Virus record (IMG/VR): IMGVR_UViG_3300025617_000900
From: an uncultured virus (IMG/VR IMGVR_UViG_3300025617_000900)
Lineage: Duplodnaviria > Heunggongvirae > Uroviricota > Caudoviricetes
Reading direction: 5' to 3' (one strand)
DNA: 64,000 bases
Positions 4,972 through 28,410 of this stretch are shown piece after piece. Below the pieces are notes generated by a model, which saw only the letters and a program-made list of their open reading frames with translations, did no database searches and was not told the origin of the DNA. The position numbers and the translations under genes were made by a program. Position 1 is the stretch's first letter. Each line of letters begins with the position of its first letter.

Positions 4972-6576
4972 ATGAAAATTTTATTAGTTTATCCTAACTT
5001 GCCTCTTATGATGTCGCCTAGTATTGCTATGGCAATTTTTAATGCTATCGGAAAGAAGAAAAACTGCGATGTTGAAATTTTTGAAACTACGCAGTATAGC
5101 GATGAATATGCTAACAAACATATACGGAGCACAGAAGTAGGCGCAAATAGGCCTAATAAAGAAGAAGAAATAAAGGATATGTTTTACATTAAGCCTACTA
5201 ATGAAATCATTCCTGATTTTATTAACAAGGTAGAAACATTTAAACCTGATTTAATATTAATGAGTGTACAAGAAGACGTTTGGTATACAGCAAAAATTTT
5301 ATTAGAAAGTATTAAAGATTTTGACATTCCTCATATTTTAGGAGGAATATTTCCTACTGCTGCACCTGATATAGTCATAAACAATCCAAATGTAAAGGCC
5401 ATATGTTTACATGAAGGAGAAAGAGCATTATCAGATTGCATTGATGCATTGCAACAGGGTTCTACTATTGAAAACGTCAGAGGACTATGGGTCAAAACAT
5501 CCGCCGGCACAATTAAAAAGAATCCGCCGCAGCCGTTGTGCGATATAACGGAAATTACACCAGATTTTTCTTGCTTTCAAGGACAACGATGGAATCGTCC
5601 TATGGGAGGCAAGTTATTCAAACGAGCAGTTAGTATGGAAACATATAGGGGCTGTCCATACAATTGTACATACTGTAACAGTCCATTTACACGAAACTTT
5701 TCTAAAATTAACAATAATGAAAATTATATGAGAAGAAAGCCTGCTTCTATTGTAGAGAGAGATTTATTATATTATAAAGAACTTTATGATCCAGATTTAA
5801 TTATGTTTCAAGACGATAGTTTTTTAGCAAGGCCCAAACGAGAAATTTTTGATTTTTGTGAAATGTGGTCAAAGTATAAGATTCCGTTTTGGATGAATAC
5901 TAGAATAGAAAACTGTACTCCGGATGTTTTAGAAGCACTAAAGGAAGCAGGCATCTACAGAATGACATTTGGTTTAGAAAGCGGCAATGAAGAATATAGA
6001 AAAAAATATCTAAAACGTAATGTTTCAAATGAAGTATATTATAAACATATGGAGTATATTAATGACAGTAATATTCCATATAGTTTAAACGTTATAATCG
6101 GCATGCCATTTGAAACAAGACAACTGGTTTTAGATACAGCAGAATTTGTGCATAACTCTAAAGGATATGATGGATTATCAGTAGTAATGCTACAACTGTA
6201 TCACGGAACAGATTTAAGGAAAATAGCAATAGAATCGGGCTTTATGGATCCTAATCATATTAATGGCGATACAAAAAATGATATCGGAGGGTTTTTGGAC
6301 AGTTGGCTTTTAAAAATGCCCCAGCCTTATTTACAACCTGATGATGTACAAAAGTTAATTAAAACATTTAGTCTTTACGCCTATTATGATAAATCAGTTT
6401 GGCCATTAATTGAAAAAGCAGAAACTGACGACAAACTTTACAACGAACTATTGGAAAATTATAAAAAAGAATTTTTTACAGATGTTCAAATTGGTGGTAA
6501 AGACAGAATAGAAAATATGTATTGTGCCAAACATGACTATAGTAGTACATACAATTTTCAAGAAATAAAATCTTGA
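4972..6576 (+). CDS. cobalamin-binding (class B-type) radical SAM protein
   Basis: N-terminal B12-binding-like domain (PDLILMS, ILGG, GE); RGCPYNCTYC; DDSF; GLESG; IIGMPFET. Confidence 0.9.
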   Translation: MKILLVYPNLPLMMSPSIAMAIFNAIGKKKNCDVEIFETTQYSDEYANKHIRSTEVGANRPNKEEEIKDMFYIKPTNEIIPDFINKVETFKPDLILMSVQEDVWYTAKILLESIKDFDIPHILGGIFPTAAPDIVINNPNVKAICLHEGERALSDCIDALQQGSTIENVRGLWVKTSAGTIKKNPPQPLCDITEITPDFSCFQGQRWNRPMGGKLFKRAVSMETYRGCPYNCTYCNSPFTRNFSKINNNENYMRRKPASIVERDLLYYKELYDPDLIMFQDDSFLARPKREIFDFCEMWSKYKIPFWMNTRIENCTPDVLEALKEAGIYRMTFGLESGNEEYRKKYLKRNVSNEVYYKHMEYINDSNIPYSLNVIIGMPFETRQLVLDTAEFVHNSKGYDGLSVVMLQLYHGTDLRKIAIESGFMDPNHINGDTKNDIGGFLDSWLLKMPQPYLQPDDVQKLIKTFSLYAYYDKSVWPLIEKAETDDKLYNELLENYKKEFFTDVQIGGKDRIENMYCAKHDYSSTYNFQEIKS

Positions 6577-7250: not shown

Positions 7251-7952
7251 ATGTTTAAGAAAAAAGACACTGCTACACATCTGATATTTCATACATCAGG
7301 TAGTAAACAAAAGAGAGACTTATTTTCTCCACAGGAAGGTATGAAATTACTTCCAGATTGGTTTAAAACAATCGATCGAAATCAAGAGTATCCTACACTT
7401 GCAACGTGTCCAGGATTTATCGAATTATTCAAAAAAAGTATTAATATACCTTTATGGTCAGATATTAAAATCACCTATAAAGGCAACCAGCTTACAGATG
7501 TACAGATGCCGGGCATTGGACAAATGTCTAGAGAATTTATTCAAGTGCATACACCTGATCAATGGGGTGATGGTTTTAAAAATAGCCTGCATATTAAATT
7601 GATGAGTCCATGGCATATTACTAGTAATAAAGATACTCCTTTTTTAATGCATGATGCAGTTTGGCACAAAGAACACATTGATGGGTACAATGTGTTGCCA
7701 GGAGTAATGGAATTTAAATATCAACATGCAAGTCATATTAATATCATGTTACCTAATAGTTCTATAGAAAAAACTTTAATGTTAAAGGCTGGTACTATTA
7801 TTGCACACCTTACTCCGTTATCGGATACGAAATTAAGCATAGAATCTAAATTAATTTCGCAAGAAAAATGGATGGGATTACAAAACTATATATCTAGTTT
7901 TAAAACACCATACGCAACAGCTAAAAAAATAGGAATGAGACTAATAAAATGA
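7251..7952 (+). CDS. hypothetical protein (beta-rich, PxWFK...CPG...IPLW family)
   Basis: AAGGA RBS before ATG 7251; AT-rich; ATGA overlap with the polymerase start. Confidence 0.7.
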   Translation: MFKKKDTATHLIFHTSGSKQKRDLFSPQEGMKLLPDWFKTIDRNQEYPTLATCPGFIELFKKSINIPLWSDIKITYKGNQLTDVQMPGIGQMSREFIQVHTPDQWGDGFKNSLHIKLMSPWHITSNKDTPFLMHDAVWHKEHIDGYNVLPGVMEFKYQHASHINIMLPNSSIEKTLMLKAGTIIAHLTPLSDTKLSIESKLISQEKWMGLQNYISSFKTPYATAKKIGMRLIK

Positions 7953-10618
7953 GCTATGTAGACGCAATGTTTGACCGTGATCAAGATATGATCAAAGCAG
8001 TCGAACGCAAAGACGGTAAAAGAACTTACCGCGAATATCCTGTAAAATATACATTTTATTATAAAGACGCTAGAGGCAAGTACAAGAGTGTGTACGGTGA
8101 TCCTCTAAGTCGTATTGTGTGCAAGAACACAAAAGACTTTCGTAAGGAAGTTGCTATCAACAGAGACAAAGAACTGTTCGAAAGTGACATCAATCCAATC
8201 TTTCAATGTTTGAGTGAACACTATCTCAATCAAGATGCTCCTAAGCTAAACATTGCGTTTTTCGATATTGAGACGGACTTTGATCCGGAAAAAGGCTTTG
8301 CTGATCCTAGTGATCCGTTTATGCCTATTACGTCAATCTCAGTTTACTTACAATGGTTAGAGACAATGGTGTGTCTCGCTGTTCCACCTAAAACACTTAC
8401 TATGGAGCAAGCTGAAAAAGAACTTGAAGGCATTGACAATGTAATGCTATTTGAGCGAGAAGGTGATATGATTGACACGTTCTTGACACTAATCGAAGAC
8501 AGCGATATCTTATCAGGGTGGAACAGTGAAGGTTATGATATTCCCTACACTGTAAACAGAACTGCTCGTGTATTGAGCAAAGATGACACAAGACGCTTTT
8601 GTCTTTGGGGACAGTTGCCCAAGAAGCGTACATATGAAAAGTTTGGCAAGGAAAGTGAAACATTTGACTTGGTGGGTCGTGTACACTTAGACAGTTTGAA
8701 CTTGTATCGCAAGTACACATATGAAGAACGCCACACATATCGACTGGACGCTATTGGCGAGATTGAAGTAGGCGAGAACAAAGTTCCGTATGAAGGAACA
8801 CTTGATGCACTATACAACAACGATTTCCGCAAGTTTATCGAATATAACATTCAGGATACTGCACTACTTGACAAGTTGGACAAGAAATTACGCTTTATTG
8901 ACTTGAGTAATGAGCTTGCACACGCTAACACAGTGCTTCTACAAACAACAATGGGTGCTGTTGCTGTTACAGAACAAGCTATTGTAAACGAAGCGTGGCA
9001 TAGAGGCTTACAAGTACCTAATCGTGCAAAGCGTGATGATGAAAACACACAAGCGGCTGGTGCATATGTTGCGTTTCCTAAGAAAGGATTGCACAAGTGG
9101 GTAGCGTCAATGGATTTGAACTCACTGTATCCGTCAGTGATTCGTGCGCTGAATATGGCTCCAGAAACTATTGTAGGACAAATACGTCCTGAGATTAGTG
9201 ATGCTCGTGTTACAGAAGATATGGGGCTAAAGAAGAAGAGCTTTGCAGGCAGTTGGGAAGGTAGATTTGCAACTGAAGAATACGAAGCAGTTATGGAGCA
9301 ACGCAAGGATGTTGCACTTACTGTCGAGTGGGAAAATGGCGGCAGTGATGTACTAAGTGGTGCAGAACTTTACAAAGTAATCTTTGATAGTAACCAACCT
9401 TGGATGCTCTCTGCTAACGGTACAATCTTTACAACAGAGTTTGAAGGTGTTATTCCAGGTATCCTCAAGCGTTGGTATAGTGAGCGTAAAGACTTACAGA
9501 AGATGCTGAAAAAAGCAAAAGATGCAGGCAATGACGCTGAGATCGAATACTGGGACAAACGACAGCTGGTTAAGAAGATTAACTTGAACAGTTTGTATGG
9601 TGCGATCCTTAACCCTGGTTGTAGATTCTTTGACAAACGTATTGGACAATCAACTACACTAACAGGACGTACAATTGTTAAACATATGAGTGCAGAAGCA
9701 AACAAAGTTATTACAGGCGTTTATGATCATGTCGGCGAAGCTGTTATTTACGGTGATACTGACTCTGTGTACTTTAGTGCTTGGCCCACTTTAGGCCAAG
9801 AAATCGAAGCTGGAAAAATTCCGTGGGACACTGAAAAAGCAATCCAATTGTATGATCAAGTGTCAGAAGCTGTAGACAGTACATTCGTTGACATGATGGG
9901 CAAATCATTCCATTGTCCAAAGAGTCGTGCAGATGTTATTGCAGCAGGACGTGAGATTGTTGCACAAACAGGTTTGTACATTACTAAGAAACGTTATGCG
10001 GCACTGGTTGTGGACAATGAAGGTTTTAGAACAGACACAGACGGTAAGCCAGGCAAAGTAAAAGCTATGGGATTGGACCTGAGACGTTCAGATACTCCTG
10101 TGTTTATGCAAGAGTTCCTTAGTGAACTCTTGCTAATGGTACTTACAGATAAGCCACGTGAAGATGTACTTGAACGTATCACTGTGTTCCGCAAGGAGTT
10201 TAGTGCAAGACCAGGTTGGGAGAAAGGTAGTCCCAAACGTGCAAACAAAGTTGGACACTACAGACGCTTGGAAGAAAAGCAAGGCAAAGCAAACATGCCT
10301 GGACACGTAAGAGCAAGTATCAACTGGAATACACTAAAGCGTATGAACGGTGACAAATACAGTGAAGAAATTGTAGATGGTATGAAAGTTATTGTTTGCA
10401 AACTAAAACAGAATCCGTTAGGGTACACAAGTGTAGCGTATCCAACAGATCAAATGAGACTGCCAGAGTGGTTCAAAGAACTTCCGTTTGATGACGCAGC
10501 AATGGCAGAAACTATTATCGACAACAAGTTGGACAACTTGATTGGTGTGTTGAACTATCCACTAGAAGATACTAAACAGCACACTACATTCAACAGTTTG
10601 TTTGACTTTGGAGAGTGA
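7949..10618 (+). CDS. family B DNA polymerase (T4 gp43-like)
   Basis: ExoI FFDIETD, ExoII WNSEGYD, ExoIII YNIQD; Pol motifs DLNSLYPS, KINLNSLYG, YGDTDS, KKRY. Confidence 0.97.
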   Translation: MSYVDAMFDRDQDMIKAVERKDGKRTYREYPVKYTFYYKDARGKYKSVYGDPLSRIVCKNTKDFRKEVAINRDKELFESDINPIFQCLSEHYLNQDAPKLNIAFFDIETDFDPEKGFADPSDPFMPITSISVYLQWLETMVCLAVPPKTLTMEQAEKELEGIDNVMLFEREGDMIDTFLTLIEDSDILSGWNSEGYDIPYTVNRTARVLSKDDTRRFCLWGQLPKKRTYEKFGKESETFDLVGRVHLDSLNLYRKYTYEERHTYRLDAIGEIEVGENKVPYEGTLDALYNNDFRKFIEYNIQDTALLDKLDKKLRFIDLSNELAHANTVLLQTTMGAVAVTEQAIVNEAWHRGLQVPNRAKRDDENTQAAGAYVAFPKKGLHKWVASMDLNSLYPSVIRALNMAPETIVGQIRPEISDARVTEDMGLKKKSFAGSWEGRFATEEYEAVMEQRKDVALTVEWENGGSDVLSGAELYKVIFDSNQPWMLSANGTIFTTEFEGVIPGILKRWYSERKDLQKMLKKAKDAGNDAEIEYWDKRQLVKKINLNSLYGAILNPGCRFFDKRIGQSTTLTGRTIVKHMSAEANKVITGVYDHVGEAVIYGDTDSVYFSAWPTLGQEIEAGKIPWDTEKAIQLYDQVSEAVDSTFVDMMGKSFHCPKSRADVIAAGREIVAQTGLYITKKRYAALVVDNEGFRTDTDGKPGKVKAMGLDLRRSDTPVFMQEFLSELLLMVLTDKPREDVLERITVFRKEFSARPGWEKGSPKRANKVGHYRRLEEKQGKANMPGHVRASINWNTLKRMNGDKYSEEIVDGMKVIVCKLKQNPLGYTSVAYPTDQMRLPEWFKELPFDDAAMAETIIDNKLDNLIGVLNYPLEDTKQHTTFNSLFDFGE

Positions 10619-10619
10619 T

Positions 10620-10727
10620 ATGAAAATTAAATTAGAAATAGAAATTGATACAGAAAGCGAGCAGGACCTAAATACAATTGAAGAACTTATAGAAAAACTA
10701 AAAGAATTAGCGGAGGATATGCAATGA
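10620..10727 (+). CDS. small acidic protein (35 aa)
   Basis: GGAG RBS; MKIKLEIEIDTES...; ATGA overlap with the next gene. Confidence 0.6.
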   Translation: MKIKLEIEIDTESEQDLNTIEELIEKLKELAEDMQ

Positions 10728-11137
10728 GAGTAGGTTTTACAGCATCTACGTTTGACCTTTGTCATGCAGGACACGTACAAATGTTGCGTGAAGCAAAAGA
10801 ACAATGCGACTATTTGATCTGCGGATTGCAGGTAGATCCTAGCGTTGATCGTGCTGAAAAAAACGCTCCTATACAAACTGTTGTAGAGCGTTACACACAA
10901 CTCAAAGCAGTTAAGTATGTTGATGAGATTATCCCCTATGGTACAGAAAAAGATCTAGAAGATATCTTGACAATGTACAATATTCATGTTAGAATATTAG
11001 GAGAGGAGTATCGTGACAAAGACTTTACAGGTAAGGATATTTGTAGACGCCGCGATATAGACTTGCATTTTAACAAGCGTGATCACCGTTTTAGTTCAAG
11101 TGATTTGCGCAAGCGAGTAGCAGAAAGAGAACAGTGA
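10724..11137 (+). CDS. cytidylyltransferase, TagD/glycerol-3-phosphate cytidylyltransferase-like
   Basis: TFDLCHAGH (HxGH), ER..QL.AVKYVDEII, SSSDLR. Confidence 0.9.
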   Translation: MRVGFTASTFDLCHAGHVQMLREAKEQCDYLICGLQVDPSVDRAEKNAPIQTVVERYTQLKAVKYVDEIIPYGTEKDLEDILTMYNIHVRILGEEYRDKDFTGKDICRRRDIDLHFNKRDHRFSSSDLRKRVAEREQ

Positions 11138-11295
11138 TGTGGACACTTTGGATTGTTAGCACAGTTATCGGACTTGAAGAACCTAAGGTAACTCATTATG
11201 CAGAGTTTGAGACTGCTATGAGTTGTCATATTGAACAAGCTGTACTAGAAACAATGTTTGAAAATAATGAGGTTGCATATTGCGATTATGAATAA
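11137..11295 (+). CDS. small hypothetical protein (52 aa)
   Basis: TGATG-coupled; MWTLWIVSTV...; fills the gap exactly. Confidence 0.6.
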   Translation: MWTLWIVSTVIGLEEPKVTHYAEFETAMSCHIEQAVLETMFENNEVAYCDYE

Positions 11296-11995
11296 ATTTA
11301 TATTTGATGTAGACGGTACACTAACACCTAGCAGAGGTATTATTGACATACATTTTAAAATGTTCTTTAATTCTTTTTGTTTGAGTAATGACGTTTATCT
11401 AGTTACTGGCAGTGACAAGTCTAAAACCATCGAGCAACTAGGCGAAGACACTTATATTCTATGTAAACGTGTTTATCAATGCAACGGAAATGACGTTTGG
11501 AAAGGCGCAACACACGTTCATACAAACGATTGGACATTACCAGAGTTTGCTGAATACTTTTTAAATGGTTGTTTGTACGAAAGTAGATTTAACTTGCGCA
11601 CAGGTACTCATATTGAAAAACGCCCTGGTATGGTAAACTTTAGTGTAGTAGGACGTGGTGCTGATGCAGAACAACGTCAAGAGTATGTAGCATACGACAC
11701 ATCTACAAACGAACGTAATACAATTGCAACAGCATTTAATACAATGTTTCCTGACTTAGAAGCAAAAGTTGGTGGCGAAACAGGTATTGATATTAGCCCT
11801 AAAGGTTTTGATAAGAGTCAAATCATAAAAGACTTTGACAAAGAAGATACTACTTGGTTCTTTGGTGACGCTATCTATGAAGGCGGTAATGATCTTCCTA
11901 TAGCAAATGTAGTAAAACATTTTAGAAAAGTAGACGGCTGGAAACAGACTATGGAGTATTTGCAAATATTTCAAGAACAAGGTATAGCAGCATGA
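11288..11995 (+). CDS. HAD-IIB phosphomannomutase-like protein
   Basis: FDVDGTLT, VTGSD, EKRPGMVNFS.VGR, GGETGIDI.PKG.DK, FFGD...GGND. Start moved from 11258. Confidence 0.88.
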   Translation: MNKFIFDVDGTLTPSRGIIDIHFKMFFNSFCLSNDVYLVTGSDKSKTIEQLGEDTYILCKRVYQCNGNDVWKGATHVHTNDWTLPEFAEYFLNGCLYESRFNLRTGTHIEKRPGMVNFSVVGRGADAEQRQEYVAYDTSTNERNTIATAFNTMFPDLEAKVGGETGIDISPKGFDKSQIIKDFDKEDTTWFFGDAIYEGGNDLPIANVVKHFRKVDGWKQTMEYLQIFQEQGIAA

Positions 11996-12762
11996 ATATT
12001 CTATTAACGGGTCATAAAGGCTTTATTGGAACAGCGTTATTTAAACGTCTTATTAACAGAGGGCACAATGTATTTGGCGTTGACGTAAAGAATGGTCCTC
12101 AGTTTGATTTACTTACGTATGATAGATGGCAAGACGACACCGATCTTGTTATTCACTTAGCAGGCAAAAGTGGTGTACGTGAAAGTTTTACAGACCCTGC
12201 AGGATATTGGAACAACAACGTAGAAGCAACCCGTAGACTATTCGAACGCTATGAAGGTACACGTATACTGTATGCGAGCAGTTCGAGTGCTTACGAGCCC
12301 GATTTGAACCCTTATGCAGCTAGTAAGTTCATCATGGAAGAACTTGCAGAACGCTACGGTACAGATCATGTGGGTATGCGTTTTCATACAGTGTATAGCG
12401 ATAGTTGTCCTAGAGAAAATATGTTCTTTAACAAGTTACGCAACGGCACACTAGAATACGTAACTAACCACTATAGAGATTTTATTCATCTAGAAGATGT
12501 ACTAGATGCAATTGAAATATTAATAAAGGCTACACACGTTAAAGGTGTAGTTGATATTGGCACGGGGAATCCTGTTAGGATCCAAGACTTGGCTCCGGAC
12601 TTACCGGTGCGTCTAAATACCCCAGGAGAAAGAAGTTGGACATGTGCTAACACACAAAAAATGAAGGCACTGGGCTTTGAACCTAAATACACGGTAGAAA
12701 AGTTCTTGACAAATGAAGACAAAGGCAATATAATAAACATATTCAATGGAGAAACAGTATGA
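11992..12762 (+). CDS. NAD-dependent nucleotide-sugar epimerase/dehydratase
   Basis: TGHKGFIG, HLAG, ASSSS, YAASK, RDFIH. Confidence 0.92.
   Translation: MNILLTGHKGFIGTALFKRLINRGHNVFGVDVKNGPQFDLLTYDRWQDDTDLVIHLAGKSGVRESFTDPAGYWNNNVEATRRLFERYEGTRILYASSSSAYEPDLNPYAASKFIMEELAERYGTDHVGMRFHTVYSDSCPRENMFFNKLRNGTLEYVTNHYRDFIHLEDVLDAIEILIKATHVKGVVDIGTGNPVRIQDLAPDLPVRLNTPGERSWTCANTQKMKALGFEPKYTVEKFLTNEDKGNIINIFNGETV
12706..12734 (+). promoter_or_regulatory. consensus sigma70 promoter (inside the epimerase 3' end)
   Basis: TTGACA-N17-TATAAT upstream of the clamp gene. Confidence 0.8.
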
Positions 12763-13502
12763 AAGATATTTTACAAGACGTAGTTGCACACACACATGCA
12801 CTAGGATTTTTGCCACTGGTTAAAGTTACATCGGATAACGGTGAAACAAAAGTTGACTCGATGGCAGAAGATCGCAGTGTAATTCTAAGTGCAACTACAC
12901 ATAATGCAGTTAACGAGTTCACAGGCACATTTGGTATGCCTAACCTAGACAAGCTTGCACTACACCTAAAGAATCCAGAATATAAAACGGATGCTAAAAT
13001 TGAAGTTGTACAAGCAGAACGCAATGGTGAAACAATTCCTACGCACATTCACTTTGAAAATGCAACAGGTGACTTCCAAAATGATTATCGCTTTATGAAC
13101 AAAGCAATTATCGAAGAGAAGTTAAAAACTGTTACATTTAAAGGTGCTGCATGGGCAGTAGAGTTTAAACCTAGTGTTGCTAGTATCGGACGTATGAAAC
13201 TGATGAGTGCTGCACACAACGAAGAACCTACATTCAATGTTACTACTAAAGCAACTGGTGGCACAAATGATCTCGTGTTTAGCTTTGGCGATGCAAGTAC
13301 ACACGCAGGCGAGTTTGTGTTTCAGAACGCTGTAGAAGGTACACTACAACACACATGGAGTTGGCCTGTGGCTGCTGTACAAGCAATTCTAAACTTGAGC
13401 GGTGATGTTACAATGAGTATTTCAGATCAAGGCGCTATGAAGATCACAGTTGATAGCGGACTTGCAGAATACAGTTACATTCTTCCAGCGCAGAGCAAAT
13501 AA
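12759..13502 (+). CDS. probable DNA polymerase sliding clamp (gp45/PCNA-like)
   Basis: 247 aa, two-domain alternating beta/alpha pattern, PCNA-like C-terminal strand (EYSYILPA), near polB. Confidence 0.65.
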   Translation: MKDILQDVVAHTHALGFLPLVKVTSDNGETKVDSMAEDRSVILSATTHNAVNEFTGTFGMPNLDKLALHLKNPEYKTDAKIEVVQAERNGETIPTHIHFENATGDFQNDYRFMNKAIIEEKLKTVTFKGAAWAVEFKPSVASIGRMKLMSAAHNEEPTFNVTTKATGGTNDLVFSFGDASTHAGEFVFQNAVEGTLQHTWSWPVAAVQAILNLSGDVTMSISDQGAMKITVDSGLAEYSYILPAQSK

Positions 13503-13505
13503 AAT

Positions 13506-13862
13506 ATGACACAAACTCAAGTAATATTTGCTATCGTCAGCTGGTTGTTATTGACTAGTGCTGTTTATACTGTAACCGGCTGGCGTAATGTTCTTGAATG
13601 TTATAAAATGTGGTTTACACGTTCTTACTGGACCAATTACAATATTATCGAAGCTGCTAGTTGGATTGCAAAAGCTATTATCATTATTCCTGCATTAATA
13701 TTCGGTGTGAATATTTGGCAATTATATTTTGTAGCACTGGTTACTAGCCTGTCTCTTATATGGGCAAGTAACAAAAAATTGTTACCTACACTTGTTGGAT
13801 TTAATACATTATGGATTTGGCTGAGTATGATGGTAATATCACAAAACTTGATAGGGAATTAA
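13506..13862 (+). CDS. small multi-pass membrane protein
   Basis: About four hydrophobic segments. Confidence 0.7.
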   Translation: MTQTQVIFAIVSWLLLTSAVYTVTGWRNVLECYKMWFTRSYWTNYNIIEAASWIAKAIIIIPALIFGVNIWQLYFVALVTSLSLIWASNKKLLPTLVGFNTLWIWLSMMVISQNLIGN

Positions 13863-15398
13863 ATGATCAAAGACTTAACATCAACACAAAGTGATTATGC
13901 ACTATTTTTACCGGCAACATCCGGATTTTACTCAGCATTCGTTGGATATCAGAGAAATAGGTATCCGTATATTGAACCTTCTAGACTGCCTAAAAACTTT
14001 ACAAACGATGTAGAAAGTATCAATTACTTGGATCCTAAAAGTCCGTTACTCTATTACAAATGGTGTTTGTACTCTGCAGGACATGCTAATCTTGATTTAA
14101 ACAAGCAAGATGATAGAGAAGATATGTTCCGCAAACGCCCACGTAATGGCGATAGTTGGGTATTAGGCGACTCAGGTGGATTCCAGATTGGTAAAGGCAA
14201 ATGGCCCGCTGACTGGAAAGATCCCAACTGTCCTGCTGCTATGAAAAAGCGCAAACAAGTGTTGACTTGGATGGACAGCCTAATGGACTATGGTATGTGC
14301 TTGGATATTCCGGCATGGGTTGCTCGGTCACCAGAAGGTCAAAAAGCTACAGGCATTAGCACATACGAAGAAGCATGCAAAGCTACTGAAATTAATAATG
14401 AGTACTTTATCCAAAACAGAAACGGCAATTGCAAATTCTTAAACGTTCTACAAGGCGAGAATCATGCAGATGCCGACGATTGGTATGATCGTATGAAGAA
14501 GTTCTGTGATCCAAAGATATATCCAGACAATCATTTCAATGGTTGGGGCATGGGCGGACAGAACATGTGTGACGTACACTTGGTTCTTAAACGTTTGGTT
14601 GCACTACGCTTTGATGGATTGCTAGAAGAAGGACTGCACGACTGGATGCACTTCTTGGGTACAAGCAAACTAGAGTGGGCGTTGGTTCTAACCGACATTC
14701 AACGTGCTGTGCGCAAGTATCATAATCCTAAATTTACTATTAGTTTTGATTGTGCTAGTCCGTTTCTTGCAACTGCAAACGGTCAGGTCTACACCGAACT
14801 TGAAATAGAAGATCGCGGCAAGTGGTCATATCGAATGGCAGCAGCATTAGATGACAAGAAGTATGCACAGGATACAAGACTGTTCCGAGATGCTGTGGTC
14901 CAAGACGGTCATCATAAAAACTTTTCTAATAGTCCAGTTATGAACGATGTCTTAACCAAAGACGTGTGCATTTATGCACCTGGTGATCTAAACAGAATTG
15001 GCAAGGAAGGTAGAACTTCGTGGGATAGTTTTAGTTATGCAATTCTAATGGCACACAATGTATGGATGCATCTAAACGCTGTACAAGAAGCAAATCGTCA
15101 ATATGACGAAGGAAAAGTTCCTGCAATGCTGGTGAATGAAAAATTTGATCAACTCTACAGCAGAGATGTTATCAATGCTGTTTTTGCTGCTGAAACTAGA
15201 GAAGAAGCAAATAAAATAATAGAAGATCACAGTAGATTGTGGATGCAGATTCCTGGCACACGCGGCGCGGTTGGCAAGAAAACAGTAAATGCTAGCACAC
15301 ATTTTAATGCACTATTTGATGTAGAAGAGCCAAAAGTTTCAGACGACGAAGAAACTTTTGACGAAACTAAGTTGGAGAATTTGGATGAGCAACTATAA
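13863..15398 (+). CDS. dpdA: TGT-fold 7-deazaguanine DNA transglycosylase (DpdA-like)
   Basis: TGT signature GDSGGFQ, LDIP, NVLQG, HFLG, SFDCAS; clustered with folE and queE. Confidence 0.82.
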   Translation: MIKDLTSTQSDYALFLPATSGFYSAFVGYQRNRYPYIEPSRLPKNFTNDVESINYLDPKSPLLYYKWCLYSAGHANLDLNKQDDREDMFRKRPRNGDSWVLGDSGGFQIGKGKWPADWKDPNCPAAMKKRKQVLTWMDSLMDYGMCLDIPAWVARSPEGQKATGISTYEEACKATEINNEYFIQNRNGNCKFLNVLQGENHADADDWYDRMKKFCDPKIYPDNHFNGWGMGGQNMCDVHLVLKRLVALRFDGLLEEGLHDWMHFLGTSKLEWALVLTDIQRAVRKYHNPKFTISFDCASPFLATANGQVYTELEIEDRGKWSYRMAAALDDKKYAQDTRLFRDAVVQDGHHKNFSNSPVMNDVLTKDVCIYAPGDLNRIGKEGRTSWDSFSYAILMAHNVWMHLNAVQEANRQYDEGKVPAMLVNEKFDQLYSRDVINAVFAAETREEANKIIEDHSRLWMQIPGTRGAVGKKTVNASTHFNALFDVEEPKVSDDEETFDETKLENLDEQL

Positions 15399-15594: not shown

Positions 15595-15713
15595 AAGAAC
15601 ATACCTTCGACGAACTTAAAAAAATATTTAGAGACGCAGGTCTTGAATACTATATTAAAAAGAACAAAGATGGTGTTGTTAAGGTTCACTTCTTAGTTAA
15701 GGAAGAAGAATGA
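15591..15713 (+). CDS. small hypothetical protein (40 aa)
   Basis: ATGA overlaps at both ends; MKEHTFDELKK... Confidence 0.6.
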   Translation: MKEHTFDELKKIFRDAGLEYYIKKNKDGVVKVHFLVKEEE

Positions 15714-16576
15714 AAAGTCTTGTAATAGGAATGGGCATAGGCGGATTATACAAGTCTGTGCTATCTAGTTTAGGATACAGTGTAGTAACTGTAGATACTG
15801 ATCCGAGCAAAGACCCTGATTATGTTAGAGTGGAAACTGCACTAGAAGTTCACGGACACTTTGACACTGTTAATGTGTGTACTCCTAATTTTACACACAA
15901 AGAAATTACAGAACTTGTTGCGCCACATGCTGATATTGTGTTTGTAGAAAAGCCTGGCTTTAAAGATAGCAATGAATGGAAAACTGTGTGTAACAGTTTT
16001 CCCGATACACGTATTATGATGGTAAAGAATAATATGTGGAGAGACAACATTTCTGAAATGAAGTCTCTAGCAACTCAGAGCAATCGTGTAGACATTAACT
16101 GGATTAGAAAGAACTGTATTCCTAATCCTGGCAGTTGGTTTACTAATAAAGAATTAGCATACGGCGGCGTGAGCAGAGACTTATTGCCTCATCTTTTAAG
16201 CTTGTACATTGTAATGAATACGGACTGGAACAATACATCTGCAAGTGAAAAACAAAGTAAACAGCAATGGCAATTGGATGAAGTTGACAGCACTGACTAC
16301 GGCACTATCAACCGTCAAGGCACACATGATGTAGACGACTTTAGTAGTTTGCAATATGACAACAAATGGCATCTTGAAGCAAATTGGCGAGATATGACTA
16401 AAGAAGAAAGTTGTATTAGATTTGACAAAGATACTGTTATTGACCTAGGTTGGTGTCCAGAAAGTGCATACAAAAATATGATACAAGATGCTGTGGACAA
16501 CCTAAATAACAATGAGTTCTGGCGTGAACAATTGTCACAAGATGTTTGGATTCATCAGCAAATAGAGGCACTATGA
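15710..16576 (+). CDS. Gfo/Idh/MocA family oxidoreductase
   Basis: IGMGIGG, VCTPN..H, VEKP, GGV..DL.PH. Confidence 0.88.
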   Translation: MKSLVIGMGIGGLYKSVLSSLGYSVVTVDTDPSKDPDYVRVETALEVHGHFDTVNVCTPNFTHKEITELVAPHADIVFVEKPGFKDSNEWKTVCNSFPDTRIMMVKNNMWRDNISEMKSLATQSNRVDINWIRKNCIPNPGSWFTNKELAYGGVSRDLLPHLLSLYIVMNTDWNNTSASEKQSKQQWQLDEVDSTDYGTINRQGTHDVDDFSSLQYDNKWHLEANWRDMTKEESCIRFDKDTVIDLGWCPESAYKNMIQDAVDNLNNNEFWREQLSQDVWIHQQIEAL

Positions 16577-17472
16577 AAGTTAAACTGTTAAGCACAACAG
16601 GCAAAGGCAAGTTCGAAGAAATCGAATGGACCAAGCCTGCGCACACTGCGGATGAGATAGAAGTTAAAGCTGTCATGACCGGAGTGTGTCGTAGCGATTT
16701 AGAAATGATGCTGGGAAACTTCGGGCCGCTTCCACTGAGTATGCAAGGACACGAAGGACTGGGTGTTGTTACACAAGTAGGAGACAACATCAGTAATGTC
16801 GGTGTTGGTGATTATGTAGCAACAAGGGGCGAGCCTGCATATGCAGACTACTACAATTGTAGAGCAAATGAATATGTTCCTGTTCCCAGTGCTGAGCCTA
16901 AATACATCCTAGAACCTGTTGCATGTGGCATTAATGTTGTGATGCAACCGTTAGATGCAATCAAAGTTCGGGCAGGCGAAGGCAAACGCTGTCTTATTTT
17001 AGGCAGTGGCTTTCTTGCACAAATTGTATACAAAACTTTAGAACTACTTGATATCAAGTTTGAAGCTGTTGATGTTGTAGGCAACTATAACAGAGAGCTA
17101 TGGGGAGACACTTTACAGAGTGAGCCTGTTGGAAGTTACGATGTTGTTATAGACCTAAGTTCAAGAACAGACGTGTTGGATGCTGTTGAATATACCAACG
17201 AAGCATTGTTGGTGCTAGGAGTGCAGAAGCAATTAACAAGTGATTACGGCAACCTACTTTGGAAAGCCTGTACTATTGTTTTTCCCAGTCCGAGAGCAGA
17301 ATGTTTTATTGATGCAATGGTGTGTGCCGAAAAATGGATCACTAATGAGCAATTAATAGTTGACAACTTCTGGACTAAAGCGTATAATAGAAGTACGGAA
17401 TGGCAACAAGCATTTGACGATGGACTAAATCGTCCTAACGGCTACAGCAGAGGTTATATCAAATGGGACTAA
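16573..17472 (+). CDS. zinc-dependent (MDR) alcohol/polyol dehydrogenase
   Basis: GVCRSD, GHEG.G, EPVAC, LGSG; no four-Cys structural Zn lobe. Start moved from 16546. Confidence 0.88.
   Translation: MKVKLLSTTGKGKFEEIEWTKPAHTADEIEVKAVMTGVCRSDLEMMLGNFGPLPLSMQGHEGLGVVTQVGDNISNVGVGDYVATRGEPAYADYYNCRANEYVPVPSAEPKYILEPVACGINVVMQPLDAIKVRAGEGKRCLILGSGFLAQIVYKTLELLDIKFEAVDVVGNYNRELWGDTLQSEPVGSYDVVIDLSSRTDVLDAVEYTNEALLVLGVQKQLTSDYGNLLWKACTIVFPSPRAECFIDAMVCAEKWITNEQLIVDNFWTKAYNRSTEWQQAFDDGLNRPNGYSRGYIKWD
17360..17388 (+). promoter_or_regulatory. consensus sigma70 promoter inside the dehydrogenase CDS
   Basis: TTGACA-N17-TATAAT. Confidence 0.75.
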
Positions 17473-21144: not shown

Positions 21145-21828
21145 ATGAAAAAACACGAAGAAATTATCGAACGCTGTAAGAACGCAGACAAGCGTTACTG
21201 GGCAGGCGATAACATTGCTCGCTTGCTACAAGACGGCGACAAAGAACAACTGATTGACGAAGCTACAGAAGCTTTTGAAACTGTACTAGACACACTGATT
21301 ATTGATCGACATACTGATCCTAATAGCCAAGGCACAGCACGTCGACTGGCCAAAATGTACTTTAATGAAATTATGGCAGGACGTTACGACTATCGTCCAG
21401 ATGCAACTGCATTTCCTAATGATTCAGAAGATCGCTATGAAGGTATGCTTGTGGTACGCTCAGAACTTAAAAGTATGTGTAGTCATCACCACCAGCCAGT
21501 AAGCGGCGTAGCGTACATTGGTATTATTGCAGCAGACAAACTTATTGGACTTAGCAAGTACACACGTATTGCACAGTGGTGCGCTCGACGTGGTACACTG
21601 CAAGAAGAACTTGCAAATGATATTGCTCGCGAGATTGCTTATTCAACAGGTGCAGAACACTTGGGTGTTTACATTCAAGCTACACATGGCTGTTGTGAAA
21701 ATCGTGGCATTATGGCACACAGCAGTCTTACACAAACAACTGTACTCAAAGGTGCGTTTAAAGAAGATGCAGGCACAAAAAAAGAGTTCTTTGACAACAT
21801 TAAACTACAACAGGAGTTTAGTTGCTAA
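21145..21828 (+). CDS. folE: GTP cyclohydrolase I
   Basis: T..R.AKMY, SMCSHH, IGLSK..R, LQEE, HGC...RG. Confidence 0.96.
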   Translation: MKKHEEIIERCKNADKRYWAGDNIARLLQDGDKEQLIDEATEAFETVLDTLIIDRHTDPNSQGTARRLAKMYFNEIMAGRYDYRPDATAFPNDSEDRYEGMLVVRSELKSMCSHHHQPVSGVAYIGIIAADKLIGLSKYTRIAQWCARRGTLQEELANDIAREIAYSTGAEHLGVYIQATHGCCENRGIMAHSSLTQTTVLKGAFKEDAGTKKEFFDNIKLQQEFSC

Positions 21829-21938
21829 TGGGTGATTATATTGCAGTGCGTATGGCACAAGTTTTTATTGTGGTGGTATTTGTATTGGGCATGATTAGTC
21901 TAGGAATTGAACTTTATACAGGAAGGCTACCGCTATGA
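21828..21938 (+). CDS. small single-pass membrane peptide (36 aa)
   Basis: TAATG and ATGA overlaps bridge folE and queE. Confidence 0.6.
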   Translation: MGDYIAVRMAQVFIVVVFVLGMISLGIELYTGRLPL

Positions 21939-22831
21939 AACTAAGGTATTCAGAAGCATTTTACAGCGTACAAGGTGAAGGTAAGTTTGTAGGAGTACCC
22001 AGTGTATTCCTACGTACATTTGGTTGTAACTTTCGTTGCATGAACTTTGGACTGGGCAAAGGCGAACCTAGTCGTGCAGAGAAACATGCAAACGGACAAC
22101 GATATAATGAAGAAGTAAAAGCATTGCTGGACGACGGCATTATTGCTAAGACCAAAACATTCGAAGACTTGCCTATTATTCACACAGGCTGTGATACATA
22201 TGCAAGCATTTATCCAGAGTTTAAAGACTTCAACAAGTTAGCAGAAGTAGACGAAGTGGTTGATCACTTGCTTAGTTTGCTGCCAGAAGGTAAATGGACT
22301 ATGGATAACGGACAAGACATCCACTTGATTTTAACAGGCGGAGAACCGTTGTTGGCGTGGCAACGACTGTATGTTGACTTGTTCGAGCACCCACGTATGA
22401 AGGATTTAAAAAATGTCACAATTGAAACAAACACTACGCAACGCTTACACGAAGATTTCTACAAGTACATCAATGGCCACACAAGACTTACTTTTACCTT
22501 CAGTTGCTCACCTAAGCTATCCGTTAGTGGAGAATCTTGGGAGGACGCTATTAGGCCCGATATTGCTCGCCAATATTTTGATGTGGACGGTAGTGATACT
22601 TATTTTAAATTTGTTGTTGCTGATCGTGCAGATATTGATGAAGCTGGTAGAGCTGTGCAAGCCTATCGCGATGCGGGTGTGGACTGCCCTGTGTACCTTA
22701 TGCCGATGGGCGGACGTTCGGAAGAGTATAACCTCAATGTACAAGAAGTTGCTAACATCTGTATGGAAAAAGGATGGCGATTCACTCCCCGACTCCACAT
22801 TAGCTTATTCGGAAATGCCTGGGGGACTTGA
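21935..22831 (+). CDS. queE: 7-carboxy-7-deazaguanine synthase (radical SAM)
   Basis: E.FYSVQGEG..G.P.VF.R..GCNFRC...GCDT, LTGGEPL, IETN, SPKL, RLH..L. Confidence 0.93.
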   Translation: MKLRYSEAFYSVQGEGKFVGVPSVFLRTFGCNFRCMNFGLGKGEPSRAEKHANGQRYNEEVKALLDDGIIAKTKTFEDLPIIHTGCDTYASIYPEFKDFNKLAEVDEVVDHLLSLLPEGKWTMDNGQDIHLILTGGEPLLAWQRLYVDLFEHPRMKDLKNVTIETNTTQRLHEDFYKYINGHTRLTFTFSCSPKLSVSGESWEDAIRPDIARQYFDVDGSDTYFKFVVADRADIDEAGRAVQAYRDAGVDCPVYLMPMGGRSEEYNLNVQEVANICMEKGWRFTPRLHISLFGNAWGT

Positions 22832-25898: not shown

Positions 25899-26984
25899 AT
25901 GGATACTTCAACACGCACAGTTAGCCCAAACGGCGCAAAAAACAGCATCAAACATGCGCTTAAAAAGCAACGTCCTATCTTCTTATGGGGTCCTCCAGGT
26001 ATTGGTAAGAGTGATATTGTACGTCAAGTTAACGACACATTTTCAAACTCACATCTCATTGACATTCGTTTGAGTCTTTGGGAGCCTACAGACATCAAAG
26101 GTATTCCGTACTTTGACAGCAACTCAGGTACAATGGTATGGGGTGCGCCTAACGAACTTCCTTCAGAAGAGTTTGCAGCACAGTATGACCATATCACACT
26201 GTTTTTGGATGAGATGAACTCAGCAGCGCCAAGTGTACAGGCAGCAGCATATCAGCTTATTCTTAACCGTCGTGTAGGTACTTACAAGTTGCCAGACAAT
26301 GTTTCAGTTGTTGCGGCAGGCAACCGTGAAGCAGACAAAGGTGTTACATATCGTATGCCTGCTCCGTTGGCTAACCGCTTTATTCACTTGGAACTTGCTG
26401 TTAACTTTGATGATTGGTTCAACTGGGCAGTTGCTAACAATGAGCACACAGATGTTGTAGGCTACTTGACTTTTGCTAAGAAAGACTTGTATGACTTTGA
26501 CCCTAGGAGCTCATCACGTTCGTTTGCAACACCTCGTTCGTGGTCATTTGTAAGTGAGTTGTTGGAAGACGAGTTGGACGAAAACACCACTACAGATCTT
26601 GTAGCAGGTGCAGTAGGTGAAGGCTTGGCTGTCAAGTTTATGGCTCACCGCAAGGTAGCTGCTAACATGCCTAATCCTACTGACATATTAACAGGCAAAG
26701 TAAAAGAGTTGAAAACTAAAGAAATTAGTGCTATGTACTCTTTGACAGTGTCTTTGTGCTACGAACTTAAAGAGTCCTGTGACGCAGGTGATAAGAAGTT
26801 TGATGACAAAGTGAACAACTTCTTGCGCTTTTCAATGGATAACTTTGACACTGAGCTTGTTGTTATGGGCATTAAGCTTGCACTAACACAATACGGCTTG
26901 CCAATTGACCCAGACGAAGTAGAGTGCTTTGATGAGTTCCACGACCGTTATGGCAAATATATTAAGGCTGCAAACGCTGCCTAA
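25899..26984 (+). CDS. MoxR-type AAA+ ATPase
   Basis: Walker A GPPGIGKS, Walker B LFLDE, AAGN, LANRF, TPRSW. Confidence 0.93.
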   Translation: MDTSTRTVSPNGAKNSIKHALKKQRPIFLWGPPGIGKSDIVRQVNDTFSNSHLIDIRLSLWEPTDIKGIPYFDSNSGTMVWGAPNELPSEEFAAQYDHITLFLDEMNSAAPSVQAAAYQLILNRRVGTYKLPDNVSVVAAGNREADKGVTYRMPAPLANRFIHLELAVNFDDWFNWAVANNEHTDVVGYLTFAKKDLYDFDPRSSSRSFATPRSWSFVSELLEDELDENTTTDLVAGAVGEGLAVKFMAHRKVAANMPNPTDILTGKVKELKTKEISAMYSLTVSLCYELKESCDAGDKKFDDKVNNFLRFSMDNFDTELVVMGIKLALTQYGLPIDPDEVECFDEFHDRYGKYIKAANAA

Positions 26985-26990
26985 AGAACA

Positions 26991-27027
26991 GAAAGAACGA
27001 GTTCTTTTGAGCTTGTTCTTTCCTTTT
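26991..27027 (+). terminator. intrinsic terminator
   Basis: GAAAGAACGAGTTC-tttt-GAGCTTGTTCTTTC stem followed by CTTTT. Confidence 0.7.
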
Positions 27028-27041
27028 GATTTAAATAATGG

Positions 27042-27069
27042 TTGACATATACACTACTGATGCTATAAT
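27042..27069 (+). promoter_or_regulatory. sigma70 promoter
   Basis: TTGACA-N16-TATAAT with extended TG, followed by ATATGTATA. Confidence 0.8.
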
Positions 27070-27099
27070 ATATGTATAAGTTAGATAAAGGGCAATGAT

Positions 27100-28410
27100 A
27101 TGAGCACTAAAGATACAGCAAGTAAACTAAAAAACTTTACTCCAGATCCTGACATTACACCCGAAGCATTAGAAACAATGCGTGTAGAAGTTATGGATCG
27201 TATTATTACTGCACGTATTGGTTTGCTACTGCGTCATCCTTTCTTTGGCAATATGGCAACACGTTTAAAAATTATTGCTGCCGATGACTGGCTTCCTACT
27301 GCGGCTGTAGATGGTCGCAACCTATACTACAACACACAATTCTTTAATGCAATGAACAATAAAGAAATTGAGTTCGTTGTTGCACACGAAATCCTACACA
27401 TGGTGTTTGATCACTTGGGACGTCGAGAAGATCGCAATCCTATGATCTACAACATCAGCGCAGACTATATTGTAAACAATACACTTGTGCGTGATCGTAT
27501 TGGTGCAATTCCGAGCATTGTTAGTTGCTACCAAGACTTTAAGTACGAAGGTTGGACTTCAGAAGAAGTATACGATGACGTATTTGAAGAGGCTAAAAAG
27601 AACGGTGAAGAATACTTAAAACAACTTGGCGAAATGTTAGACGAACACCTTGACATGGATGAAGGTGACGAAGGCAGTTCAGATGGTGATGTAGACGAAG
27701 ACGGCAACGGTAATGCTACAAGCAAAAGCAAGCCCAAGTACTCTAAAGAAGATATGAAGCAGATCAAGGATGAGATCAAAGAGAATATGATTAGTGCGGC
27801 ACAGAGTGCTGGCGCTGGCAATGTTCCAGGTGCTGTACAGCGCATTATCAAAGAGCTTACTGAACCCAAGATGAACTGGCGTGAGATTATTCGCCAGTCT
27901 GTACAAAGCACAATTAGAAGCGATTATACATTTACTCGTCCGAGCCGCAAAGGTCAAATGAGCGGTGCTATATTGCCCAGCATGGACTTTGAAGATACCA
28001 TTGATATTGCAGTTTGCATTGACATGAGTGGGTCAATTGGTGAAATACAAGGCAAAGACTTTTTAGGCGAAGTCAAAGGTATTATGGAAGAATTTCCAGA
28101 CTACAACATTAAAGTATGGTGCTTTGACACAGATGTTTACAACGAAGAAGACTTTGAAGCTAATGACGGTAAAGACCTGTTGGACTACCAGCTAATGGGC
28201 GGTGGCGGCACTGACTTTATGGCAAATTGGAAGTATATGAAAGAGCAGGATTATGTTCCTAAGAAGCTCATTATGTTTACAGACGGCTATGCTTGGGATA
28301 GCTGGGGCGACCCAGACTACTGCGATACAGTATTTCTTATCCACAGCAACCGTGACAAGAATTTAGAAGGACCGTTTGGTACAACTGTACACTACGATGC
28401 AGCGGCATGA
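27100..28410 (+). CDS. metallopeptidase-like + VWA domain protein (DUF2201 type), MoxR partner
   Basis: HEILH zincin motif, acidic linker, MIDAS DMSGS, GGGGTDF, FTDG. Confidence 0.9.
   Translation: MSTKDTASKLKNFTPDPDITPEALETMRVEVMDRIITARIGLLLRHPFFGNMATRLKIIAADDWLPTAAVDGRNLYYNTQFFNAMNNKEIEFVVAHEILHMVFDHLGRREDRNPMIYNISADYIVNNTLVRDRIGAIPSIVSCYQDFKYEGWTSEEVYDDVFEEAKKNGEEYLKQLGEMLDEHLDMDEGDEGSSDGDVDEDGNGNATSKSKPKYSKEDMKQIKDEIKENMISAAQSAGAGNVPGAVQRIIKELTEPKMNWREIIRQSVQSTIRSDYTFTRPSRKGQMSGAILPSMDFEDTIDIAVCIDMSGSIGEIQGKDFLGEVKGIMEEFPDYNIKVWCFDTDVYNEEDFEANDGKDLLDYQLMGGGGTDFMANWKYMKEQDYVPKKLIMFTDGYAWDSWGDPDYCDTVFLIHSNRDKNLEGPFGTTVHYDAAA

Follow-up and report, generated by a model that had tools for sequence, protein, structure and literature searches.

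Why would an enzyme that presumably exchanges DNA bases carry, near its C-terminus, the same short peptide that ends the DNA polymerase encoded upstream of it? This question is raised by a stretch of 64,000 nucleotides (the window, meaning the whole stretch that was analysed) from an uncultured virus of the Caudoviricetes (IMG/VR record IMGVR_UViG_3300025617_000900). It includes the replication module of a large marine phage that has not been cultured, with a T4-type family B DNA polymerase (PolB), a PCNA-like sliding clamp and an enzyme of the DpdA kind that has the fold of tRNA-guanine transglycosylase (TGT). We found that the shared peptide behaves as a conserved, exposed and portable linear motif common to the enzyme and the polymerase, and structure modelling suggests that the DpdA-like enzyme probably hooks onto the phage's own clamp through it. 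The features that carry this answer are listed here, with protein lengths in amino acids (aa).

7949..10618, + strand: family B DNA polymerase (PolB) of the T4 gp43 type, 889 aa, assigned by Pfam, PHROG and T4 gp43 matches.
10583..10615, + strand: C-terminal peptide of PolB, TTFNSLFDFGE, a presumed clamp-interaction epitope read directly from the translation.
12759..13502, + strand: PCNA-like sliding clamp, 247 aa, assigned by its fold match to PCNA and viral clamps.
13863..15398, + strand: TGT-fold, DpdA-like putative DNA guanine transglycosylase, 511 aa, with a globular body at about residues 1-461.
15279..15335, + strand: predicted clamp-contacting stretch of this enzyme, KTVNASTHFNALFDVEEPK, residues 473-491, with the core FNALFD at 15303-15320, taken from the interface of the complex prediction.
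15321..15395, + strand: acidic variable linker and terminal helix of the enzyme with a second conserved motif, K503-L504-x-x-L507 (15369-15383), defined by alignment and by the AlphaFold2 (AF2) model.

PolB matches the Pfam families DNA_pol_B (E 1.4e-35) and DNA_pol_B_exo1 (E 1.6e-19), the PHROGs family phrog_262 (E 6.4e-198) and T4 gp43 (26% identity over 701 columns, E 3e-54). Its C-terminus reads ...QHTTFNSLFDFGE, with the stop codon at 10616-10618, and FNSLFD, encoded by 10589-10606, lies within the last 11 residues. The position of this terminal peptide matches that of the T4 gp43 tail (...KASLDFLFG), which is a gp45-binding epitope (PMC2988020). The tail of the DpdA-like open reading frame (ORF) reads ...NASTHFNALFDVEEPKVSDDEETFDETKLENLDEQL, with THFNALFDVEE 25 residues before the end. 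Behind its FNALFD core (F481-D486), encoded by 15303-15320, the protein continues for 25 residues as an acidic tail, VEEPKVSDDEETFDETKLENLDEQL. An earlier reading of the DNA made without database searches (the sequence-only reading) had drawn attention to this pair of peptides and to the acidic tail behind the second, and its coordinates and translations proved correct.

The motif is strongly retained among relatives of the enzyme. We detected [FY]xx[LF]F[DEN] in 120 of 120 close relatives, at 23-43 residues from the end. Across 57 aligned tails F485 is invariant (57/57), F481 is F in 48 and Y in 9, L484 is L in 50 and F in 7, and D486 is D in 46 and E in 9. Positions 480, 482 and 483 vary around the invariant F485, and the linker after the motif is acidic and variable. 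A second element, K-L-[DE]-x-L, stands at the very end of the acidic tail (K503 in 48, L504 in 57 and L507 in 53 of the 57 sequences). It is carried by a helix spanning residues 501-510, which has a block predicted local distance difference test (pLDDT) score of about 86 and lies outside the predicted clamp interface. In the monomer model, residues 462-500 have a pLDDT of about 47-57, with values <50 at 475-482 and 489-494, and the FNALFD motif is thus not buried.

The same holds for related loci, for which we counted a loose form of the motif in 93 sources (80 + 2 + 10 viral loci and the window). Many of these are near-duplicates, with 34 distinct PolB tails and 58 distinct DpdA-like tails among them. 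Of 87 complete DpdA-like tails, 80 carry the loose motif, as do all 81 complete PolB tails, the latter with [LMF]F[DESTGNQK] in their last 12 residues, and 71 of the 76 sources that hold both proteins have it in both tails. A motif pattern applied to 4847 complete ORFs of the related loci gave 409 matches (72 DpdA-like, 71 PolB and 266 other). The claim that the motif is conserved and exposed in DpdA is thus borne out by close relatives, by related viral loci and by the low pLDDT of the tail. Further out in the family, polar-[LM]F occurs in the last 50 residues of 54 of 101 long representatives (50% clustering), compared with 12.8 expected from the rate in the protein bodies, and 30 of these 54 have the motif at most 5 residues from the C-terminus.

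Within the window, THFNALFDV of the DpdA-like enzyme has the best BLOSUM62 score (31; next 23) to the PolB 9-mer TTFNSLFDF among 82 other proteins. LF[DG] appears in the last 45 residues of 7 of 238 stop-to-stop ORFs of at least 60 aa, and FN[SA]LFD in PolB and the DpdA-like ORF only. Chance is an untenable explanation because of the conservation across relatives, not because of this within-window statistic, which is modest alone.

In other lineages the motif has moved to the very end of the enzyme. At two loci (L022 and L039) the enzyme has no acidic tail, and its last residues read ...NNFTNLFDE and ...STFDNLFE, respectively. In the tails printed for these two loci and for the P0150 lineage, the motif lies 0-3 residues from the C-terminus. 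The P0150 lineage keeps the order PolB, clamp, enzyme at about 55%, 40% and 32% identity to the respective proteins of the window; its PolB ends in ...TTFDDLFDF and its enzymes in ...NNLFDFS, ...NNLFDFD or ...TLFDFN. Paired tails were also read in phage PA5oct (PolB ...HFDSLFGW, enzyme EST35_0316 ...SFNSLFDVD), Vibrio phage 2.275.O (PolB ...NNTDLFDW, enzyme ...NNNDLFGW) and Phosso (PolB ...TFNDLFTF, enzyme ...VEGLF). The only clear joint change is that of the Vibrio phage 2.275.O pair, in which both proteins have lost the first aromatic residue and gained a terminal W.

The presumed binding partner, the ORF at 12759-13502, is a PCNA-type sliding clamp by the fold of its model. The AF2 model, built on 36 sequences, has a pLDDT of 91.5 and a predicted template modelling (pTM) score of 0.87, and it shows two topologically repeated domains in about 250 residues. 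Its listed Foldseek matches in the Protein Data Bank (PDB) are PCNA or viral sliding-clamp chains (best E 1.1e-10, TM 0.6-0.69), including yeast, human and archaeal PCNA and the clamp of African swine fever virus. The suggestion that this ORF is a probable clamp is therefore supported by fold. At the level of sequence it matched only phrog_12062 (unknown function, E 1.5e-31) in PHROGs, and no BLAST similarity to T4 gp45 was detected (best E 0.12). Homologues in two phage records are annotated as PCNA or sliding clamp. Residues 38-42, 225 and 240-247 are invariant or nearly so among 36 clamps, and the C-terminal YxYI(L/M)PA is retained in lineages that are about 40% identical.

To place the tail on the clamp, three clamp copies and the enzyme tail (residues 466-511), each with its own alignment, were modelled in a single complex prediction, which scored 0.69 (runs 0.73, 0.69 and 0.69); the best of three controls scored 0.00. 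The mark for this score is reached by 116 of 157 solved complexes and by 2 of 215 mismatched pairs, a calibration that is only rough for a trimer with alignments of its own. At least 59% of contacts are shared between the runs, and the pLDDT of the partner is 55 or more. Tail residues 473-481 and 483-491 contact residues 38-42, 116-130, 157-158, 201, 224-226 and 241-247 of a single protomer, and the tightest pairs join F481, L484 and F485 to clamp residues 42, 127, 226 and 243. This region, under the inter-domain connector and beside the C-terminus, is where ligands of PCNA and gp45 bind. The location of the PCNA/gp45 ligand site is also described in PMC2988020. The complex prediction that the sequence-only reading had called for, of the 12759 protein with the DpdA peptide, thus came out in its favour, and the model supports, but does not show, docking of the tail peptide in the canonical pocket of one clamp protomer.

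What the enzyme itself may be is indicated by its fold. Its AF2 model has a pLDDT of 92.9 and a pTM of 0.91, and all 50 Foldseek matches listed from the PDB are TGT entries (best E 8.3e-7, probability 1.00). A second fold comparison, the VIA wide search, is independent of Foldseek and covered 48,161 PDB representative chains. Its ranks 1-5 are all members of the TGT superfamily, namely archaeosine TGT (Z 17.9), QTRT2 (16.4), bacterial TGT (15.8), DpdA (7ui4) and Cap10 (14.0), followed by generic barrels at Z 11.3. The match to the DNA preQ0 insertase DpdA (7ui4_A) has a Z of 14.7 and a root-mean-square deviation of 4.4 over 309 aligned residues.

Across 110 sequences, D148, P150, H263, G266 and D296 are invariant and D103, S104, G105, G106 and Q108 nearly so. 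The family conserves GDSGGFQ, which aligns with SDSGGFQ of a phage 'TGT domain-containing protein'; hhalign of the enzyme profile against this protein gave a probability of 98.7% (E 4e-16). The phage protein itself scores 24.1 bits against PF01702, under the cut-off of 26.3, and the link to Pfam TGT is hence transitive. With roles as in bacterial TGT, DSGGFQ would be the active-site loop and the conserved aspartates would be catalytic or base-binding. Catalysis is argued for by GDSGGFQ together with the three aspartates D103, D148 and D296. In a Pfam scan of 11 chosen family members, only the protein of Vibrio phage GR7B touches PF01702, below the cut-off. Of 8000 scored candidates in the 90% collection, 7978 have E <= 0.001, and 962 clusters at 50% identity fall within E 0.001. 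By these counts the TGT-fold family of the enzyme, as yet without a name, is very large.

The genomic surroundings are consistent with a role in 7-deazaguanine modification, as two genes for precursor synthesis lie about 6-7 kb downstream of the DpdA-like gene.

21145..21828, + strand: GTP cyclohydrolase I (FolE), first step of 7-deazaguanine synthesis (Pfam GTP_cyclohydroI E 4.9e-38; phrog_2197 E 1.4e-43).
21935..22831, + strand: QueE-like radical S-adenosylmethionine (SAM) enzyme of the 7-carboxy-7-deazaguanine synthase type (phrog_2076 'QueE-like radical SAM domain' E 1.5e-51).

PA5oct and Vibrio phage 2.275.O have their genes in the same order (PolB, clamp, small ORF, DpdA-like enzyme), the former with QueE near the DpdA-like gene and the latter with QueF, a queuosine-biosynthesis protein and GTP cyclohydrolase I near it; in Phosso, FolE-like and QueE-like genes are found near the clamp. 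DNA of PA5oct resists cleavage at G-containing restriction sites and behaves as G-modified, and the portion of that report available to us notes QueE and a pterin synthase and names no transglycosylase (PMC12191111). A deazaguanine synthesis/incorporation system was listed for PA5oct by Iyer et al. (PMC7824862). Single-protein scans for wider viral loci, made with proteins of PA5oct, Vibrio phage 2.275.O, P0173, P0160 and P0162, confirmed none, and the locus context is drawn from the window clade, the P0150 lineage and two Phosso-like loci only.

In the mechanism that we propose, the F-x-x-L-F-[DE] peptide would act as a clamp-interaction motif of the gp43/gp55/gp33 type. F481, L484 and F485 would insert into a hydrophobic pocket of one clamp protomer, a pocket predicted to be built by the inter-domain connector and the conserved C-terminal Y-x-Y-I-L-P-A. 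The enzyme would be held on freshly replicated DNA behind the fork and would there swap guanine for a 7-deazaguanine base made by the FolE/QueE-type pathway of the phage. Tethering would raise the local concentration and processivity of an enzyme that would otherwise find each G by diffusion. From the evidence above we infer both binding and coupling, and consider it fairly likely that a DNA 7-deazaguanine transglycosylase is tethered to the clamp and that modification is thereby coupled to replication. We rate clamp binding alone somewhat higher than the full statement of tethering and coupling. That DNA rather than tRNA is the substrate, and that tethering affects the level of modification, we likewise infer.

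The clients of the T4/RB69 clamp gp45 provide the known counterpart. The tails of gp43, gp55 and gp33 are interchangeable, sit on unstructured linkers and are functional when internal (PMC2988020); that of T4 gp55 reads ...SLDFLYEAND. As in these clients, a short hydrophobic-plus-acidic peptide of the polymerase-tail type is borne on an unstructured, variable linker, and as in T4/RB69 the clamp is encoded by the phage and is presumably a trimer of two-domain subunits. The client here is a DNA base-exchange enzyme and not a polymerase or transcription factor, and the consensus is F-x-x-L-F-[DE] instead of S-L-D-F-L-[FY]. The clamp matches PCNA by fold, without BLAST-level similarity to gp45, and in the window clade, unlike in T4 clients, about 25 residues including the second K-L-x-x-L element follow the motif.

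Several observations weigh against clamp tethering of a DpdA-like enzyme. The 511-aa ORF had no match to Pfam, PHROGs, NCBIfam or PDB sequences, either by phmmer or with the 110-sequence profile. The label 'DpdA-like' of the sequence-only reading therefore stands at the level of fold, where TGT-superfamily chains take the first five ranks, and fails at the level of sequence, where no curated model matches; the name is justified by fold and genomic context, not by sequence membership. Where the phage TGT-domain protein has the Cys cluster CNCPVCS, the aligned stretch of the enzyme reads NFS-NSPVMND, and we take this cluster to be a zinc-binding feature of TGT. No QueC or QueD was recognised among the window proteins with Pfam and PHROGs. 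The loose motif is failed by seven of the 87 DpdA-like tails (L040, L051, L052, L080, L084, L085 and L096), all of which keep an aromatic residue at the position equivalent to F485, and 47 of the 101 more distant representatives are without polar-[LM]F in the last 50 residues. The BLOSUM62 score of 31 was reached by 7 of 300 shuffled proteomes, so that the within-window chance test is moderate. The score of the complex prediction may reflect memory, since like PCNA-peptide and clamp-peptide complexes have already been solved. Co-variation with the polymerase tail, another expectation of that reading, finds anecdotal examples in the Vibrio phage 2.275.O pair and the P0150 lineage, and does not extend to the window clade, in which the residue after LF (D, E, S or T) shows no visible tracking between PolB and enzyme; a statistical co-variation of the two tails is not claimed. 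Finally, T4 alpha-glucosyltransferase was proposed to bind gp45 and to glucosylate during replication, an analogous claim that was reproduced neither in vitro nor in vivo, its pull-downs with gp45 included (bioRxiv 10.64898/2025.12.06.692756). The idea is the same, a phage DNA modifier that rides the clamp so that modification follows the fork. The T4 alpha- and beta-glucosyltransferases (...KEQFDIITK and ...FKKAIDL) have no gp43-type tail, whereas the DpdA-like enzyme carries the polymerase's own peptide.

Three other explanations were considered. The shared peptide could be functional and dock on another replisome partner, such as the clamp loader, single-strand-binding protein, helicase or primase. 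Tails of this hydrophobic and acidic type also mediate contacts with further replisome components. The partners discussed for such tails in T4 include the clamp loader and more than one site on gp45 (PMC2988020). In the same source, however, the C-terminal tail of the T4-type polymerase is the clamp epitope, and PolB is a gp43 homologue; moreover, clamp and DpdA-like genes have remained neighbours in the window clade, in the P0150 lineage and in both PA5oct and Vibrio phage 2.275.O, and in the complex prediction, whose best control scored 0.00, the peptide occupies the canonical pocket of the clamp. We regard a different partner as improbable.

Of similarly low probability, in our estimate, is an enzyme that is tethered to the clamp and is not a 7-deazaguanine DNA insertase, acting instead on another base or substrate, in glycosylase-like repair or surveillance, or as a non-catalytic TGT-fold DNA binder. 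Such a role would fit the lack of TGT and DpdA sequence-model matches, of the Cys cluster and of QueC and QueD in the window, as well as the sugar-nucleotide genes around the locus, and by fold two non-catalytic proteins, QTRT2 and Cap10, match the enzyme as well as DpdA does. Against it stand GDSGGFQ and D103, D148 and D296, invariant or nearly so in the 110 sequences, the FolE and QueE-type genes that accompany the enzyme gene in four lineages, the G-modified behaviour of PA5oct DNA (PMC12191111) and the deazaguanine system listed for this phage (PMC7824862). The last explanation, a resemblance without binding function in which acidic aromatic tails arose independently or serve solubility or turnover, was already disfavoured and is very improbable: the loose motif is common in other + strand ORFs (266 of 1340 in the last 50 residues, 102 of 1340 in the last 12) and some shuffled proteomes reach the within-window score, but F485 is invariant while neighbouring positions vary, every close relative keeps the motif, other lineages retain it in a new place, at the very C-terminal end and with a match to their own PolB tail, and the distant representatives exceed the expected count about as 54 to 12.8.

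The clamp-tethered DpdA-like enzyme that we favour would extend what has been described for DpdA. Hutinet and co-workers recognise five DpdA subfamilies (bDpdA and DpdA1-4) and treat insertion as a post-replication event; in their account DpdA3 fully modifies genomes, DpdA3/4 failed in E. coli, and the word 'clamp' is absent from the main text as available (PMC10516641). Like DpdA, the enzyme has a TGT-superfamily barrel, a gene linked to 7-deazaguanine precursor genes and a presumed role in protecting phage DNA from restriction; unlike DpdA, it matches no sequence model, is larger (a body of about 460 aa) and is without the Cys cluster. Placement in the DpdA3 subfamily was considered and dropped. 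The profile link to a 259-aa phiST protein, which sits between deazaguanine genes and polymerase genes, is weak (probability 80%, 86 columns), and the DpdA3 identity of this protein ('CGPG_00065') is an unconfirmed guess, so no subfamily is assigned.

No literature linking a DpdA-type enzyme or 7-deazaguanine to a sliding clamp, PCNA or the replisome was found in a search whose coverage mostly excludes subscription journals, in agreement with the sequence-only reading, which was aware of no such description. A base-exchange enzyme would be a new client class of the sliding-clamp toolbelt, apparently one that is not in print. In eukaryotes, DNMT1 has a PCNA-binding region and performs replication-coupled maintenance methylation. 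Both would be replication-coupled DNA modifiers, one by methyl transfer and the other by base exchange, in different kingdoms and with different types of motif.

Current accounts of DpdA leave open how a large share of guanines is modified in the minutes of an infection by an enzyme that has to flip out and exchange bases one at a time, and a clamp-docking peptide would give a concrete answer, with the enzyme travelling with the replisome. Heterologous tests of such enzymes may then need the cognate clamp and loader. The peptide may also serve as a handle for finding unannotated phage DNA-modification enzymes, namely as proteins whose tails copy that of the polymerase. For genetic work there is the cultured relative PA5oct, in which the modifying enzyme is apparently not pinned down in the available text (PMC12191111). 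More tentatively, and with less probability than we give to tethering in this phage, clamp tethering might be a general and old property of the whole family of 962 clusters. If so, the clamp would be a processivity factor for base exchange, and 7-deazaguanine insertion would be co-replicative, not freely post-replicative. This could explain the very high G replacement in some phages and the failure of such enzymes when they are expressed without their phage clamp. The tail of an epimerase encoded next to the clamp would then hint at further hypermodification enzymes on the same toolbelt.

This epimerase and two further elements complete the clamp/DpdA-like locus.

11992..12762, + strand: NAD-dependent sugar-nucleotide epimerase/dehydratase, directly upstream of the clamp (Pfam Epimerase E 7.9e-28).
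12706..12734, + strand: promoter-like site TTGACA-17-TATAAT, matching the sigma-70 consensus at 12 of 12 positions, 25 bases upstream of the clamp start.
13506..13862, + strand: small hydrophobic ORF of 118 aa between the clamp and the DpdA-like gene, with no family match in Pfam or PHROGs.

The clamp ORF lies two genes upstream of the DpdA-like ORF, with the 118-aa ORF between them and gaps of 3 and 0 bases. Homologues of the small ORF were found in 15 of the searched sources, the window included, and PA5oct and Vibrio phage 2.275.O also have small ORFs at this position. Promoter-like sites number 29 in the region against 28.2 in shuffled sequences, so the site at 12706-12734 is to be read as a consensus match only, of a class that is not enriched. 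No terminator-like site was found on the + strand between it and 15398. The reading of clamp and dpdA as genes two apart behind one promoter was right in its gene order, with the full sigma-70 consensus ahead and no intervening terminator-like site.

The epimerase tail, ...GNIINIFNGETV (about 12727-12759), bears a loose likeness to the FN[SA]LFD peptide. A tail of the type II(N/K)[LI]FNGE ends 15 of 20 epimerase homologues in the searched sources, that of the window included, and 4 end in ...KGFLYEEI. From these tails the epimerase may be a further clamp client, though not an established one; the tail is possibly constrained for another reason, because its last codons overlap the ribosome-binding region and start of the clamp gene. 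We inspected the 15 largest clusters of other motif-bearing ORFs for additional candidate clients. Many look antisense or off-frame; the epimerase alone is a recognised gene that also recurs.

On either side of the clamp/DpdA-like pair lie sugar-nucleotide genes (10724-12762 and 15710-17472). Upstream of the clamp are a cytidylyltransferase-like gene (PHROG annotation 'heptose 1-phosphate adenylyltransferase'), a PMM-like gene and the epimerase, and downstream of the DpdA-like gene are a GFO/IDH/MocA oxidoreductase and a zinc alcohol dehydrogenase-like gene. Their products may further decorate the modified base or some other target. A nucleotide search of the phage collection with the window gave no match.

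Other members of the enzyme family have different tails. One subgroup (P0183, P0191, P0194 and P0222) is without the xLF tail and ends in ...TDLEEF..., ...TDLEPF... or ...DDLEEF... instead, which, judging from the tails alone, may be a docking peptide for another processivity factor. More TGT-like relatives are encoded by Vibrio phage GR7B (L086, 3674-5290) and Xanthomonas phage PhiXhv-12 (L087, 3638-5344). Both proteins have ...KTLFG/KTLFS at an internal position, then acidic residues and finally a C-terminal tail that is long and rich in lysine; in each phage a sigma-factor gene stands two genes further downstream.

No clamp loader was recognised among the window proteins with Pfam and PHROGs. 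The AAA ATPase at 25899-26984 was rejected as a candidate on account of its AAA_3/AAA_5 domains, its VWA partner and a match to phrog_168 at only E 8e-4. It looks MoxR-like (phrog_1297 E 3.9e-98) and, with the DUF2201 metallopeptidase/VWA-like protein encoded behind it, makes up a conserved pair at 25899-28410 (+ strand).

The window also has an unusual density of radical SAM genes (4972-6576 and 38029-63118), with eleven ORFs matching Pfam Radical_SAM, of which two have SPASM, two an HMPTM zinc ribbon and one a B12-binding domain. Beside them are genes for a tryptophan-halogenase-like protein (31868-33382), a TauD dioxygenase, a methyltransferase, a UDP-glucose dehydrogenase-like protein and an epimerase, and by its gene content the region looks like a large biosynthetic cluster in a phage. 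Lastly, an ORF at 29946-31154 (+ strand) has an N-terminal Mtd_N domain (major tropism determinant, E 7.8e-12) and could be the target protein of a diversity-generating retroelement.

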